The notes under the pieces are model-generated. The model had not been told where the DNA came from and ran no database searches. It was given only the letters and a program-made list of their open reading frames with translations. Positions 1 through 15,600 of a DNA stretch of 19,421 bases are shown here, in pieces; positions within the stretch are counted from its first letter, which is position 1, and every line of letters begins with the position of its first letter. Origin of the DNA: a virus; UHGV virus genome UHGV-1602873; one strand, 5' to 3'. The position numbers and the translations under genes were made by a program.

Positions 1-15
1 TTTGTTGACTTCCAT
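1..15 (-). CDS. Start of a Nu1-like terminase small subunit gene (first 5 codons only; continues off the window)
   Basis: Reverse complement of 1-15 is ATGGAAGTCAACAAA (MEVNK), identical to the first codons of the Nu1 gene at 15379; upstream context (16-30) also matches the Nu1 ribosome-binding region of the second copy. Confidence 0.45.
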
Positions 16-240
16 TGTTCATTCCACGGACAAAAACAGAGAAAGGAAACGACAGAGGCCAAAATGCCCGTTTTCAGCGCCTGTCATTTCCTTTCTTTTC
101 AGGGGGTATTTTAAATAAAAACATAAAGTTACGGCGAAGAAGAACGGAAATGCCTTAAACCGGAAAATTTCCATAAATAGAGAAAAACTGCGCGCCTGAC
201 GCCCCGTAGCCTGTCAGATCGCCGGAAAGGACCCGCCAGC
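16..240. other. cos site of the island (cos2): cosB-like region, cosN-equivalent 12-mer at 193-204, cosQ-like flank 205-238
   Basis: Position-for-position alignable without gaps to 15380-15600 (the lambda-type cos); the 12-nt cohesive-end equivalent reads cgcctgacgccc versus aggtcgccgccc in cos1 (5 of 12 differ); flanking R-site-like blocks mostly conserved. Confidence 0.6.
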
Positions 241-260: not shown

Positions 261-644
261 TCAACCAATCAGCTTATAGCGACCATCCCGTGCATTGCGG
301 CGTACACGCTCAATCTTGAGGCATAGCGCCGCATCTGGCTTTTTTGGGACAGGTACGCGGCAATATTCAGAAGCGCGAGGAATATTATTTATCCAGTCGA
401 TCACTTCACTTAAATACCAGGCCTTACGCCCTTCCGTAACCTGCACACGCTCCGGGAACTCTCCACTAGCCTCAAGGTTTAGCAGTGTACGCCGACTCAG
501 GGTTGTAATTTCCATCACCTGATTCATATCAACAAGGCGCTCGCTTAAACACATTTTGTCAGCGATAGCTTTTAATTCCTCTACAGCTGGATTCGGGTAC
601 ATCATTTCGGCAATTGGCTTAAGGTCATTGTAATCATTCTGCAT
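261..644 (-). CDS. AlpA/Xis-family winged-helix DNA-binding protein (127 aa)
   Basis: Segment ITTLSRRTLLNLEASGEFPERVQVTEGRKAWYLSEVIDWI matches the AlpA/excisionase-like fold signature (GxFP, W..SEV..WI); strong SD (AAGGGGGA) 5 nt upstream; start follows the upstream stop codon within ~15 nt. Confidence 0.7.
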   Translation of the reverse strand: MQNDYNDLKPIAEMMYPNPAVEELKAIADKMCLSERLVDMNQVMEITTLSRRTLLNLEASGEFPERVQVTEGRKAWYLSEVIDWINNIPRASEYCRVPVPKKPDAALCLKIERVRRNARDGRYKLIG

Positions 645-655
645 TGTATCCCCCT

Positions 656-997
656 TTACACACGAGCCAGCGGCTGAACAGAAATACCTGAGCCAACAAA
701 TGCTGCAATCTTTACTGACAGTTCTTTTACAGACTCAGGCCAGTTCAGAGCATCAACATTTAAGACACCTGTCTTATAGACCTGAGCCTGTGTTTTTTTC
801 GCGGTGTCGATTTGTACAGCGGAAACATAAACCGCTTTACCTACGCTCGAACCATCCCATACCACCAGTGCACCTGTTGCATCTTCCTGCATCAGTGGCG
901 TAAATGCAGGAATTACCCCTTTATTAGCTGAAAATATCCCCAGCGTAGTCACCAGTGCTTCAGTGCCAGCCATGAGTTCAGTGTAATGAGTAGCCAT
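656..997 (-). CDS. Head decoration protein, lambda gpD family (113 aa)
   Basis: C-terminal half aligns with lambda D (LVVWDGSSVGKAV..YKTG..WPES..AAFVGSGISV versus [31 protein letters not shown]); divergent from the gpD at 9491-9823. Confidence 0.8.
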   Translation of the reverse strand: MATHYTELMAGTEALVTTLGIFSANKGVIPAFTPLMQEDATGALVVWDGSSVGKAVYVSAVQIDTAKKTQAQVYKTGVLNVDALNWPESVKELSVKIAAFVGSGISVQPLARV

Positions 998-1006
998 TGC
1001 TCCCCC

Positions 1007-2047
1007 TTAGCCAATGCGAACGGTAACAAAACGATTGATGCGGGCCGGTATTGGCTGTGGTGCTGAATGTGTCTGCACATATTCAATAGCCGGATCACCA
1101 GGCACAATATAGTTTTTCGGTGCAAGTTCGGCTTTAGTCAGCCCCATTCGGATTAGCTCCGGATCCTGAATACCGCCATAGGCGACAATCCCCTGAAGAG
1201 CCGTATTGCCAAGCACCATCAAATCAGGATCAAGGAAATGTTTTTCTGTTCCGTCCTCGTCGGTATAACGCCCGCTGTAAACAACAATCGCAACATCGCC
1301 CATATACCCTTTAAAACTCACCGAATCACCAAGGTCTTTAAGGGCCGTTTCCAGTTCGGAATTAGAACCACGACGGGTATCCAAAGCCTCTTTTATCGCT
1401 CTGAATGAACGGTATTTCTTCCATACATTACCACCCATAATGATGATATTAGTGACGCCCTCACTAAATTCTGCGTAGCTCTCAATATCATCATTTGGAT
1501 CAAAAGTTTCTTTATCCTTACCTGACCACTCAGTACCGCCAGACTGAGTGATGATATTTTGTGGTTTTATATTCCAGTCCAGCTCATAACGTTCAATACC
1601 ATCGCCCTCAATGATATTTTTCCCCGTTGTGATTGCCTGAACAGCAAGCCATTCAATACGTGCACGAATAGCTTTAGCCTGATTTACAATCGCCTGTTTA
1701 ACTTTAATATTACGCGCCCCAAAAGCATTGTATTGCTCAGGTGACACACCAGCAGGGCGCACAGCTAACTTATTTGGATCAATGCTGCTTTTCGGCTTCA
1801 TATAGCCTGGACGAATTGTTTTTGATTCGTACCCTTCGTCACGTGAAACTTTACTACCCACCATAGGAGAACAAAACGCTGCAATTGGGATATTTGGATC
1901 GTCGATTGTATCAAGAATAATATCGCGCGATTCAAACATTACCGAGCGAGTAAAAAACAAACTGGTAAACAACGCATTTAGTTGTTTTTGTACATCTACA
2001 GCATTAACTACCTGTACAAGCTGAGTAGGCGAATATAAATCAACCAT
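1007..2047 (-). CDS. Major capsid protein, lambda gpE family (346 aa from MVDLY start)
   Basis: Full-length homology to lambda E, strongest centrally (ITQSGGTEWS, DTRRGSNSELETA, GDVAIVVYSG, VLGNT); AAGAGGA SD upstream of ATG at 2047; the 71-codon N-terminal extension of the raw ORF is not used. Confidence 0.9.
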   Translation of the reverse strand: MVDLYSPTQLVQVVNAVDVQKQLNALFTSLFFTRSVMFESRDIILDTIDDPNIPIAAFCSPMVGSKVSRDEGYESKTIRPGYMKPKSSIDPNKLAVRPAGVSPEQYNAFGARNIKVKQAIVNQAKAIRARIEWLAVQAITTGKNIIEGDGIERYELDWNIKPQNIITQSGGTEWSGKDKETFDPNDDIESYAEFSEGVTNIIIMGGNVWKKYRSFRAIKEALDTRRGSNSELETALKDLGDSVSFKGYMGDVAIVVYSGRYTDEDGTEKHFLDPDLMVLGNTALQGIVAYGGIQDPELIRMGLTKAELAPKNYIVPGDPAIEYVQTHSAPQPIPARINRFVTVRIG

Positions 2048-2221
2048 ACGCATCCTCTTTGCATTCATTAAAAATAATTGTGGATATATGCTATCACCGA
2101 TATTTGTCATGCGAACACATGCAACCGAGTGCAATGTTGTATAAAGTTTTGGGGTGACAACTTCAGTGCGGACAATTAGTGTTAATATCTTCACTCCCTT
2201 TGGTCGGGATTTATGTAGCAT

Positions 2222-2967: not shown

Positions 2968-3012
2968 TTTTATTTTTACCCCCTCGTTTAAAAAGTTTTT
3001 TGTGCACCACCA

Positions 3013-3245
3013 CCTTGTCTACCTTGTCTACCTGATTAGTTATCAGGCCAGTAATGGCGCGGGTTTCAGGGAGGTAGACAGCCCCAAATAGCTGTCTACC
3101 TCATCTCTACCCGTCTCCTTACCTGTCTACAAAAATGGGTAGATAAGGTAGATAACAGGTAGACAGTGAAAAATAGTTATCTACCTGCATTAATACATTG
3201 AAATAAAAGTATTTTCTTTCAGTCAGGTAGACAAGGTAGATAACC
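3013..3245. repeat. Iteron array, putative replication origin
   Basis: At least 10 copies of GGTAGA(C/T)A(A/G) in both orientations: tandem ttgtctacc x2 (3015-3032); 12-bp perfect inverted repeat gaggtagacagc/gctgtctacctc (3071-3082, 3091-3102); ggtagataa x2 (3138-3155); caggtagacag (3157-3167); caggtagacaaggtagataacc (3224-3245); AT-rich stretch 3189-3222. Lies immediately 3' of the primase-helicase gene. Confidence 0.65.
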
Positions 3246-3256
3246 ATTGCCATTTT

Positions 3257-5920: not shown

Positions 5921-6201
5921 GACTCACTCCCTGGCGGATTTTTGCAGCGAATACAGCAACACAACCGGACGGGCAACGGCTACGCGCTTCGCGTTCCGTC
6001 CAGGCGGTTACGTGGATGATTTGAGATTCTCCGGCACTCAGTGCCAGAAAACGCCACACAAAGGCCGTTTGTGTGTGTACAAGGTGTGGTATATGATTTA
6101 CAGCAACCATAACGGCTCCTAGTTTACGTTGTTGGTTAGACGCCCCGTATGTGTTCCCAGCACTGCGGGGCGTTGCTCTTTGTATTTCAACAATCCTTTC
6201 G

Positions 6202-6279
6202 GTGTGTTTCATGTTATGAGCGCATGAAACACACGTCAAGGCTTTTTGTATTTCTTTTTTTGTGTATACTGAAACACAC
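6202..6279. promoter_or_regulatory. Operator-like repeats overlapping a leftward sigma70-like promoter in a divergent control region
   Basis: 12-bp perfect inverted repeat gtgtgtttcatg/catgaaacacac (6202-6213, 6223-6234) plus a third copy gaaacacac (6271-6279). On the minus strand, TTGACG (6234-6239), 17-bp spacer, TAACAT (6211-6216) form a promoter whose -10 and spacer sit inside the repeats. Confidence 0.5.
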
Positions 6280-6956: not shown

Positions 6957-7493
6957 ATGAATCTAAAAAAAATAGCCACAAACACAAAAAACAAGATAAC
7001 AGAAACATTTAATAAACTTATATTAGAGGCATCTAAAACCCCCACACAAGATGAAATTAAAATACTTGAGAGAAGGAGTAAGAAGTTTAATTACTCCTTT
7101 TTCTCATACGCAGTCACAGGAGCTATAATAGTTTTTTGCTCTCAACCATTAATTAAATACGCAAACCCAATACTTATTTTATTGAGTGGTCTGTTACTGT
7201 CTATCATCATTATCATTCTCAGAATGATTTATATTTCACAAGCGAATGCATCATGGACAACCAAAAAACGCTCACATGTACTAGTTCATTTTCTTTCTGC
7301 ATGTTTCATAGCATCAACATTGACGTTGCTATATCAGGCTTACGATAATAACATCACACACAAATTGTACTGTAAAAATATACAACAACTTATTGAAAAA
7401 AGGATAGAGACAGAAAAAAACATCAGCATATTCAGTGGGATGCAATGCACCCCGGTATATGATTACTCTTTATTTGGATTTAATCTCTTATAA
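6957..7493 (+). CDS. Small membrane protein (178 aa, about three predicted transmembrane segments) in an AT-rich cargo segment
   Basis: Hydrophobic stretches FFSYAVTGAIIVFCSQPLI, ILILLSGLLLSIIIIILRMIYI, VLVHFLSACFIASTLTLLY; AGGGAG SD; Lys/Asn/Ile-rich codon usage unlike its neighbours. Confidence 0.6.
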   Translation: MNLKKIATNTKNKITETFNKLILEASKTPTQDEIKILERRSKKFNYSFFSYAVTGAIIVFCSQPLIKYANPILILLSGLLLSIIIIILRMIYISQANASWTTKKRSHVLVHFLSACFIASTLTLLYQAYDNNITHKLYCKNIQQLIEKRIETEKNISIFSGMQCTPVYDYSLFGFNLL

Positions 7494-7502
7494 AGAATGT
7501 TA

Positions 7503-7536
7503 TTACTGATTTGAGTACAAATTCTCAAATCAGTAA
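7503..7536. terminator. Hairpin between convergent genes (membrane protein and alpA), likely bidirectional terminator
   Basis: Perfect 13-bp inverted repeat ttactgatttgag/ctcaaatcagtaa with 8-nt loop, flanked by T/A-rich sequence on both sides. Confidence 0.55.
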
Positions 7537-7562
7537 TTCATAATATTTTATTCTGAGATAAT

Positions 7563-7799
7563 TTAAACTACCCACTCACCTCGAATCCATGCCTGCACTT
7601 CTGAAAGACGATATGCAACAGCAGTGGAACCAATCTTGATCCGCTTAGGAAATTTTCCTTCCTTCTCCAGCTTCCAGCGTGTGCTGTTCGCAAGAGTGGT
7701 TAGCTCCCGACATTCTTTCTCACGGATCATTCGGTCAATGTTAGGAATGTACTCCAGACCCTTTTTATCAACAATTGCCATTTTTTTCATGTTAACCAA
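7563..7799 (-). CDS. alpA: AlpA-family transcriptional regulator/excisionase-like protein (78 aa)
   Basis: Signature LEYIPNIDRMIREKECRELTTLANSTRWKLEKEGKFPKRIKIGSTAVAYRLSEVQAWI; overlaps the integrase stop by 8 nt. Confidence 0.85.
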   Translation of the reverse strand: MVNMKKMAIVDKKGLEYIPNIDRMIREKECRELTTLANSTRWKLEKEGKFPKRIKIGSTAVAYRLSEVQAWIRGEWVV

Positions 7800-9027: not shown

Positions 9028-9159
9028 TTTTAGCCCCAAAAAGCAATACAAGCTGCAATACAGAGATGATTGCAACACACAGATAACGAGGAAAATTCAG
9101 TGAAAGCACCAGATAAACTTATTCTTTATTATCAAAAGATTAAGTGTAAAAACCAGCAA

Positions 9160-9435
9160 CTACACGAAAGCCTCAGAAAGCCATGCTAAGTGCTTGGGTT
9201 TGACATATCCCGGCGTAAATTCAGAGGTGGAGCCGCCACGGGAACGGATAACCTCACCGGAAACAATCGGCGAAACGTACAGCGCCATGTTTACCAGTCC
9301 CGGAATTTGTGAGAGATAGACTTTCTCCGTGGTGAAGGGATAGCTCTCACGGAAAAAGAGACGCAGAAACAGCGGATCAAACTTAAATTTCTGCTCATTT
9401 GCCGCCAGCAGCTGGGCGGTTGTGTACATCGACAT
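9160..9435 (-). pseudogene. E: Truncated lambda-type major capsid gene E (first ~82 codons, then 9 unrelated codons and a stop)
   Basis: MSMYTTAQLLAANEQKFKFDPLFLRLFF...TPGYVKPKH matches the lambda gpE N-terminus as recalled; the frame then reads LAWLSEAFV-stop at ~9190-9160, next to the integrase gene. Confidence 0.85.
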
Positions 9436-9440
9436 AAAAA

Positions 9441-9480
9441 AATCCCGTAAAAAAAGCCGCACAGGCGGCCTTTAGTGATG
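9441..9480 (-). terminator. GC hairpin plus U-tract in the D-E intergenic region (attenuator/terminator-like)
   Basis: On the minus strand: GCCGCC-TGT-GCGGC followed by TTTTTTT between the gpD stop and the E start. Confidence 0.35.
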
Positions 9481-14833: not shown

Positions 14834-14859
<26 letters not shown>

Positions 14860-15379
14860 TCAGCAACCCCGGTATCAGTTCATCCAGCGCGGCTGCTTTG
14901 TTCATGGCTTTGATAATATCCCGTTTCAGGAAATCAACATGTCGGTTTTCCAGTTCCGGAAAACGCCGCTGCACCGACAGGGGGATCCCGTCGAGAATAC
15001 TGGCAATTTCACCTGCGATCCGCGACAACACGAAAGTACAGAATGCGGTTTCCACCACTTCAGCGGAGTCTCTGGCATTCTTCAGTTCCTGTGCGTCGGC
15101 CTGCGCACGCGTAAGTCGATGGCGTTCGTACTCAATAGTCCCTGGCTGGAGATCTGCCTCGCTGACCTGCCGCAGTTCTTCAACCTCCCGGCGCAGCTTT
15201 TCGTTCTCAATTTCAGCATCCCTTTCGGCATACCATTTTATGACGGCGGCAGAGTCATAAAGCACCTCATTACCCTTGCCACCGCCTCGCAGAACGGGCA
15301 TTCCCTGTTCCTGCCAGTTCTGAATGGTACGGATACTCGCACCGAAAATGTCAGCCAGCTGCTTTTTGTTGACTTCCAT
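14834..15379 (-). CDS. nu1: Terminase small subunit Nu1 (181 aa)
   Basis: MEVNKKQLADIFGASIRTIQNWQEQGMPVLRGGGKGNEVLYDSAAVIKWYAERD... matches lambda Nu1. Confidence 0.95.
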
Positions 15380-15600
15380 TGTTCATTCCACGGACAAAAA
15401 CAGAGAAAGGAAACGACAGAGGCCAAAAAGCTCGCTTTCAGCACCTGTCGCTTCCTTTCTTTTCAGAGGGTATTTTAAATAAAAACATTAAGTTATGACG
15501 AAGAAGAACGGAAACGCCTTAAACCGGAAAATTTTCATAAATAGCGAAAACCCGCGAGGTCGCCGCCCCGTAACCTGTCGGATCGCCGGAAAGGACCCGC
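15380..15600. other. Lambda-type cos site (cos1): cosB, cosN with the 12-nt cohesive-end sequence at 15557-15568, cosQ-side flank
   Basis: Reverse complement of 15544-15578 reads ACAGGTTACG-GGGCGGCGACCT-CGCGGGTTTTCGC, i.e. lambda right end, cohesive end and left end joined. Confidence 0.85.

Follow-up and report, generated by a model that had tools for sequence, protein, structure and literature searches.

A small protein of a phage satellite, AlpA2, encoded behind the satellite's capsid and decoration genes and directly ahead of its cos site, appears to belong with the head genes that precede it. Judged from sequence comparison, the capsid, decoration, and AlpA2 genes constitute one portable cassette that recurs across otherwise different satellites, and we see about an even chance that AlpA2 is a transcription factor specific to this cassette, which would bind a repeat array upstream of the capsid gene cooperatively and activate the capsid-decoration-alpA2 operon once triggered by upstream read-through. 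A sequence-only reading of the same DNA had proposed a cos-recognition or packaging-specificity factor and, as a secondary idea, a late regulator. Its underlying observation stands with minor numeric corrections and its packaging proposal falls, while the late regulator is the reading best supported by the conserved array and the candidate promoter geometry.

The analyzed stretch of 19,421 nucleotides (the window; virus genome UHGV-1602873) is a lambdoid prophage whose capsid gene E is interrupted by an island about 11 kb long. Inserted in gene E of the lambdoid prophage, the island belongs to a known kind of helper-embedded satellite (HE-PICI), the 11capE type described by Tommasini, Mageeney and Williams (2023). 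It lies in a helper late gene with fragments of E on both flanks, its int, alpA, and pri genes are co-oriented with the helper late genes, and it contains the doubled attP motif tgTGTATTGCa. In the complete genome, the island extends to the left beyond the window, where a 64-aa ORF, HEPN/DUF262 cargo, and the rest of E are found. The features that frame the island are given below in window coordinates or, where indicated, in those of the 33.5-kb locus L001.

14834-15379, minus strand: Nu1, followed by A, W, B, C, and D (helper late genes)
9160-9462: N-terminal fragment of the split helper capsid gene E, on one side of the island
L001 9096-9884: C-terminal fragment of the split helper capsid gene E, on the other side
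9042-9062 and 9071-9079 (L001 9962-9982): doubled attP arm motif TGTATTGCA, 12-bp spacing
7563-7790 (or to 7799), minus strand: canonical alpA (AlpA1), overlapping the end of int; Pfam match 3.1e-15; candidate int-proximal regulator or RDF
2968-3256: likely satellite replication origin between primase and orf85, with at least 13 GTCTACC/GGTAGAC iterons in both orientations and AT-rich stretches

Several observations concern the satellite and its relatives in their own right. At 6188-6279, in the divergent region between the YlcI/YnfO-like and Icd-like genes, GTGTGTTTCA occurs three times (once inverted), and these repeats are a probable operator of the satellite early control region; no C4/IsrK-type RNA was found there at the Rfam gathering threshold, and an Rfam scan of the whole window gave no RNA family. 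Just left of the window (L001 10041-11757), between the satellite cos and attR, an AT-rich pair of DUF262 and HEPN genes on the opposite strand is probably anti-phage defence cargo, and an Abi_C gene occupies the same position in related islands. An AT-rich gene beside alpA1 (6957-7493, plus strand), likely another cargo gene, encodes a predicted membrane protein of 178 aa and is followed by a perfect 14-nt inverted repeat at 7502-7537. In the related loci L006 and L176 (Buttiauxella, Scandinavium), the interrupted lambda-E-type gene lies in a prophage with Baseplate_J and Tail_P2_I, that is, a P2-like baseplate and tail, and one satellite family thus parasitizes helpers of differing tail types.

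AlpA2 and the two genes ahead of it are arranged as follows, in order of transcription.

1007-2047, minus strand: major capsid protein, lambda E-like, 346 aa, first cistron; Pfam Phage_cap_E 2e-41; RefSeq start
656-997, minus strand: head decoration protein, lambda D-like, second cistron; Pfam HDPD 4.4e-15; RefSeq annotation
650-655, minus strand: Shine-Dalgarno sequence AGGGGG, 5 nt ahead of the AlpA2 ATG within an 11-nt gap, as read from the sequence
261-644, minus strand: AlpA2, ATG start, 127 aa, AlpA family

The ORF, the gene order, and the Pfam match bear out the earlier description of a 127-aa AlpA-type protein encoded after the capsid and decoration genes, as the AGGGGG at 650-655 does for the strong Shine-Dalgarno sequence. 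The decoration stop codon (TAA at 656-658) is close, as described, but the gap measures 11 nt rather than about 15. Proximity to cos also holds, the AlpA2 stop codon lying 26 nt from cosQ and the homology to the helper cos starting at about position 238. Residues 36-85 match Pfam Phage_AlpA (PF05930; 7.6e-9, 35.8 bits against a cut-off of 21), a domain carried by all AlpA2 homologs, and the sole significant PDB sequence match is 8c3t, the AlpA-family excisionase of GIsul2 (2e-9). Helices are predicted at residues 9-15 and 19-33, followed by a winged HTH (37-86), a linker, and a C-terminal helix (103-120); the modeled domain shows the excisionase-type wHTH fold, with a beta-strand, two helices, a beta-hairpin wing, and a third helix. 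A first AF2 model, built from 19 close sequences, was poor (pLDDT 55). The N-terminal extension, put at 40 residues in the sequence-only reading, is real, but it comprises about 35 residues and is conserved only in part: residues 1-20 are variable, and the common E. coli allele P0065 begins 13 residues later. That reading had not mentioned the conserved C-terminal tail of about 40 residues, which contains the predicted helix 103-120.

Against orthologs from other genera, synonymous sites of alpA2 are saturated, and dN, at 0.2 for the gene as a whole, falls to 0.05 in the HTH and rises to 0.23-0.33 in the C-terminal tail and to about 0.45 across residues 1-35; by these comparisons AlpA2 is a real coding gene under constraint. 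Its recognition helix, TTLSRRTLL, is almost invariant among relatives. The protein has three scattered cysteines (C32, C95, and C107), no CxxC pairs, and a wHTH fold, and does not correspond to the Cys4 zinc fingers of Ogr/Delta. Two candidates for interpreting its terminal regions were set aside: P0103, which seemed to share the C-terminal tail alone, is a capsid::AlpA2 deletion fusion and uninformative on the tail, and the P. aeruginosa "AlpA" antiterminator, weighed as a guide to the N-terminal extension, turns out to be 21Q-like, with eight helices and a site that lies between -35 and -10, its name being coincidental.

The comparison covered 12 diverged loci from Escherichia, Buttiauxella, Scandinavium, Kosakonia, Kluyvera, Superficieibacter, Cedecea, Pluralibacter, Salmonella, and metagenomes. 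All 12 (at least nine genera) keep the order capsid E-like/HDPD/AlpA2 with gaps of 6-13 nt. What accompanies the trio varies: the int-proximal regulator is of the AlpA1 type, the HTH_17 type, or a third kind, the replicases include D5_N/DUF5906, DUF927, and Zn-ribbon primase forms, and the integrases differ too. The cassette occurs with or without TerS, and either embedded in capsid gene E or chromosomally, L177 and L178 being chromosomal PICIs near rpoD-dnaG rather than helper-embedded elements. The satellite capsid protein is 55% identical to that of EcCICFT073. The 127-aa AlpA2 family is narrow, with about 95 clusters at 90% identity, all from Enterobacterales where the organism is named, and five representatives below 1e-30 among 1.8 billion proteins. 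No full-length homolog was found in 50,697 phage records, in which a counterpart beside cos in true phages was represented by weak HTH-only matches alone, and scans of IMG/VR returned near-identical E. coli copies only.

When the sequences upstream of the capsid gene were aligned, a conserved block stood out from otherwise diverged surroundings. The elements of this region are as follows.

2222-2245, strand unassigned: GC-rich hairpin between SSB and the array (terminator scan, inverted repeat I8); relatives have clear terminator hairpins there
2119-2144, minus strand: direct-repeat array TTATAC / TTGCAC / TTGCAT with exact 10-bp spacing, the proposed AlpA2 operator
2088-2096, minus strand: candidate extended -10 TGATAGCAT (TGnTAnnAT), predicted, 40 nt before the capsid ATG

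The array is found at the same place in 12 of the 12 loci and consists of three to four repeats of TT[G/A][C/T]A[C/T], with the consensus (C/T)ATTGCAC and TTATAC as the first unit; most relatives have four units, whereas the window has three. It is the sole array of its kind on both strands of the window, of the 33.5-kb L001, and of every related locus, and none of 2000 dinucleotide-preserving shuffles yielded one. A unit taken singly carries little information (about 7 bits), and meaning can be attached to the phased array only. EcCICFT073 and its helper lack both the array and AlpA2. In 9 of the 12 loci, the last unit is followed after 21-22 nt by TGnTAnnAT, located 29-46 nt ahead of the capsid ATG (the -10 is less clear in L006, L176, and L013), and this geometry is kept despite the saturation of synonymous sites. 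The proximal unit falls at about -43 to -38 of a candidate extended -10 promoter without a -35, a geometry of the class-II activator type. The terminator-type hairpin just upstream indicates that the capsid cassette is its own transcription unit, apart from the replication unit.

Of the DNA-binding proteins, AlpA2 alone is shared by every element that bears the array. Small co-variations agree with this: the R52G change of the Cedecea-type AlpA2 accompanies TTGTAC units, and wing changes in the Buttiauxella and Scandinavium proteins accompany TTATAC units, which suggests that AlpA2 is the partner of the array. AlpA1 was also considered as its binder and rejected, five array-bearing loci having no AlpA1-type gene; a replication origin at the array was ruled out by the GTCTACC iterons and AT-rich origin at 2968-3256.

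In the mechanism that we propose, AlpA2 would be the third and last cistron of a portable unit comprising promoter, capsid, decoration, and AlpA2. Several AlpA2 molecules would bind the ATTGCAC-type units head-to-tail, with the units ending at about -38, and from this class-II-like position would activate both the capsid operon and AlpA2 synthesis itself. Xis-, BldC-, and PrtN-type wHTH proteins are known to bind phased direct repeats in this head-to-tail manner. The first AlpA2 molecules would arise when transcription reads through the upstream terminator, in the embedded state as Q-modified helper late transcription and otherwise from the satellite early operon, and the loop would then sustain capsid expression on excised, replicating satellite circles. 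We infer here both that AlpA2 is the binder of the array and that its effect is activation; the terminal helices may serve in oligomerization or RNAP contact. The AlpA of PICIs is a proven activator of its own promoter (PMC6092414).

Some considerations weigh against this activator model. The array and alpA2 lie within 2 kb of one cassette, so linkage alone could explain why they are inherited together; the protein on the array could come from the host or the helper; an activator at the end of its own operon requires a separate trigger; and the extended -10 promoter might be constitutive and the array repressive. An alternative is a regulator with another logic or target, which could be a negative autoregulator capping the capsid operon or a factor that interferes at promoters of the helper or host, the array then being occupied by, for example, a host response regulator. 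An extended -10 promoter does not require an activator in order to fire, RNAP could be occluded by units that reach -38, and satellites are known to repress helper genes, as PLE does with CapR. Winged-helix response regulators, too, use phased direct repeats as sites. We nevertheless regard such a regulator as unlikely: between Q and J, the 33.5 kb of the helper late region contain no comparable array, the units fit no enterobacterial regulator motif known to us, and sites from -38 to -74 without a -35 form a geometry more typical of activation. A sigma-54 promoter at the array, read directly from the sequence, fails as well, with no GG at -24 and a spacing one base short.

The activator model can be extended to the cassette as a whole. 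Tentatively, and with rather less than even confidence, we suggest that capsid, decoration, and AlpA2, together with the phased ATTGCAC operator, may form a self-activating head-gene cassette that moves between unrelated satellites, helper-embedded as well as chromosomal, and frees capsid production from helper late transcription after excision. More speculatively, the conserved basic C-terminal helix of AlpA2 might also contact terminase or cos DNA and thereby couple late transcription to packaging.

The varied company of the cassette bears on whether AlpA2 could instead be a second RDF or an att architectural protein, working with Int at attL/attR or attP, for instance in timing late excision from the helper capsid gene. 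Its closest solved relative is indeed an excisionase (8c3t, GIsul2), the attP arm motif has the ATTGCA core that the array units also have, and 11capE excision happens late. Yet an int-proximal RDF-type gene is already present in every AlpA2-bearing element, the cassette is found in chromosomal PICIs and alongside integrases unrelated to each other, the doubled attP motif is missing from the AlpA2-bearing L010, L011, L013, L177, and L178, and alpA2 lies not beside int but 7 kb away from it, within the head operon. The mobility of the trio, independent of the recombination module, argues against an excisionase role, and we consider this possibility very improbable, in agreement with the earlier preference for a function other than excision. 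The canonical alpA that the sequence-only reading had placed beside int is present; AlpA1 and the AlpA2 family are related (hhalign 96.9%) and differ in their recognition helices. The common ATTGCA core is the one element that keeps a second RDF under consideration, and it makes a role for AlpA2 at att in embedded elements possible. The doubled attP motif, with its 12-bp spacing, was seen only together with HES-type integrases, and its resemblance to the capsid-promoter units, spaced by 10 bp, may reflect paralogy of AlpA1 and AlpA2 sites.

Downstream of AlpA2, the window contains the satellite cos and the beginning of a further reading frame.

228-234, minus strand: cosQ (GGGTCCT), 26 nt after the AlpA2 stop codon, in the 3' arm of the hairpin GGGCCCGC-n8-GCGGGTCC; assigned by alignment with the helper cos
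193-204, minus strand: cosN, 12-nt cohesive end GGGCGTCAGGCG, of which 5 of the 12 positions differ from GGGCGGCGACCT, the helper's counterpart at 15557-15568
39-153, minus strand: cosB of helper (lambda) type, near-identical to the helper cos1 and comprising R3 (about 135-153), R2 (about 80-97), and R1 (about 39-56)
1-15, minus strand: first five codons of a Nu1-like ORF, which outside the window diverges after about 13 codons into a 64-aa chimeric ORF

The assignment of cosQ, cosN, and cosB follows the anatomy of lambda cos. This anatomy is also described in PMC9026076. The island and helper cos are homologous from cosQ through cosN and R3-R1 to the Nu1 ATG, and the helper type of the island cosB implies that helper Nu1 should recognize the island cos without an adaptor. 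The bases flanking cosN, as well as cosQ and cosB, are almost the same as in the helper, and the overhangs vary among related satellites as well; differing cohesive ends might prevent annealing between helper and satellite ends.

This region is where AlpA2 would act as a packaging factor, binding at or near the satellite cos and helping the helper terminase to recognize, cut, or terminate in the manner of Nu1 or Rpp. The MerR-like wHTH fold is shared with Nu1, as had been suggested for its DNA-binding domain, but a sequence relation is lacking. For Nu1 and Rpp alike, BLASTP, hhalign, and fold searches yielded the generic MerR-like fold alone; hhalign to AlpA2 gave 0.1% for RppA and 1.5% for Nu1 versus 96.9% for AlpA1, and Pfam Phage_Nu1 had no match in AlpA2. 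The comparison with Nu1 and with PICI packaging-redirection proteins thus brought these no closer to AlpA2 than generic MerR-like folds, and the true Nu1 homologs of the relatives are separate genes. The closeness of AlpA2 to cos is accounted for by gene order, the capsid cassette ending where the cos-TerS module begins.

Variation among the relatives bears on packaging as well. A full Nu1-family TerS is encoded just after cos in L002, L006, L009, L011, L176, and L178 and in the near-identical copies L004 and L005, and the TerS-bearing loci whose cos was read (L002, L006, L009, and L011) have a cosB unlike that of lambda, CTGGTGGTGGTGTTGTTGTTC. The window, L003, and L010 have lambda-type R sites and no TerS, and L012 has a third cosB type. 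The TerS proteins of the relatives, often accompanied by a conserved 91-aa ORF, are 167-180 aa long and 37-52% identical to helper Nu1 (e.g., L002 8547-9089). In the present island, the terS position is taken by the 64-aa AT-rich chimeric ORF, which keeps about the first 13 Nu1 codons (L001 11821-12015), and recombination with the helper seems to exchange the TerS/cosB module. At least three cosB types follow the presence or absence of a satellite Nu1-family TerS, while the HTH of AlpA2 stays constant, which indicates that packaging specificity tracks TerS/cosB pairs. The DNA between the AlpA2 stop codon and cosQ is not conserved between genera, and positions 1-260 contain neither a repeat array nor a high-scoring unit. 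Since cosQ and cosN are common to the helper, AlpA2 binding there would give no specificity, and with a helper-type cosB in the window redirection is unneeded. TerS and Rpp are encoded downstream of cos, whereas AlpA2 is encoded upstream of cosQ and does not co-vary with cosB; nor does AlpA2 have homology to RppA, RppB, or RppC, the island cosB is of helper type, and the chimeric ORF stands at the terS position. A packaging function of AlpA2 is therefore improbable in our view, and the cos-recognition or packaging-specificity factor of the sequence-only reading finds no support.

In EcCICFT073, whose RppA lies downstream of cos, the gene at the position of alpA2 was examined as a counterpart and encodes an unrelated acidic protein of 137 aa. 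This gene (L008 22084-22497, flanked by the decoration gene and cos) has a match (E 1e-8) in the C-terminal portion of the head-maturation-protease PHROG, the region that nests the lambda Nu3 scaffold, so the 137-aa protein may be a satellite scaffold.

PICI and HE-PICI satellites are known to carry capsid genes. Should AlpA2 be the cassette activator, it would represent a testable regulatory node for switching such genes on, in which one protein and a 30-40 bp operator control the building of the satellite's own heads, and it would explain how capsid expression continues after excision from the helper late operon. The location of packaging specificity in swappable TerS/cosB pairs, not in AlpA2, is useful for engineering PICI-based delivery particles.

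Compared with known systems, the island agrees with the 11capE type of HE-PICI in its capsid E site, gene order, doubled attP motif, and helper-shared cos. AlpA2 belongs to the same family (PF05930) as the AlpA of EcCICFT073 and Vis of P4. However, PICI AlpA proteins have 62-83 aa, whereas AlpA2 has 127 aa, being extended by about 35 residues at the N terminus and having a conserved C-terminal tail of some 40, and their helix reads TTLANSTRW instead of TTLSRRTLL; moreover, the AlpA2 gene closes the capsid operon at a distance of 7 kb from int and is passed on with the capsid cassette rather than with the integration module. The GIsul2 excisionase (8c3t), RdfS, and the Xis proteins of lambda and Pukovnik act at att with their cognate integrase, whereas AlpA2 co-occurs with several unrelated integrases and with another RDF-type gene in each element. 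Rpp (RppA/RppC) and lambda Nu1 resemble AlpA2 in their MerR-like wHTH fold and in genes that flank cos in PICIs and lambdoid phages; unlike AlpA2, which is independent of cosB type, they have an N-terminal wHTH, are encoded downstream of cosB, and co-vary with it.

Parallels in regulatory logic are offered by PrtN and BldC, which, like AlpA2, are small wHTH proteins of excisionase/MerR-like fold, and which activate from tandem repeats of about 10 bp, those of PrtN lying upstream of phage-derived structural genes. The P-box repeat consensus is of the ATTG type. PrtN binds the P boxes of the P. aeruginosa pyocin genes (PMC4684702). Models of PrtN were among the BFVD fold matches of AlpA2 (E about 0.01; ranks 12, 13, and 18), and BldC was among the PDB matches; both proteins belong to Pfam families other than that of AlpA2, and PrtN is under the control of a repressor cleavable in the SOS response, its gene lying outside the operon that it activates. 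Delta of P4 is a satellite late activator encoded inside its own sid-delta-psu (Psid) operon, which ends next to cos. By analogy, AlpA2 may work like delta, as a late activator within the capsid/decoration operon that it would activate; delta is, however, an Ogr-type zinc finger that also transactivates the late promoters of its helper P2, whereas AlpA2 lacks a zinc finger and a search of the helper late region gave no array.

In the portions of Tommasini, Mageeney and Williams (2023) available to us, every Phage_AlpA match is classed as "Integration", and we found there no mention of a second AlpA, of its cassette, or of an array at the promoter. The AlpA family was known before, as were this type of satellite and its cos; as far as these portions extend, the extended second AlpA paralog tied to a capsid cassette, together with its phased candidate operator, is apparently new.
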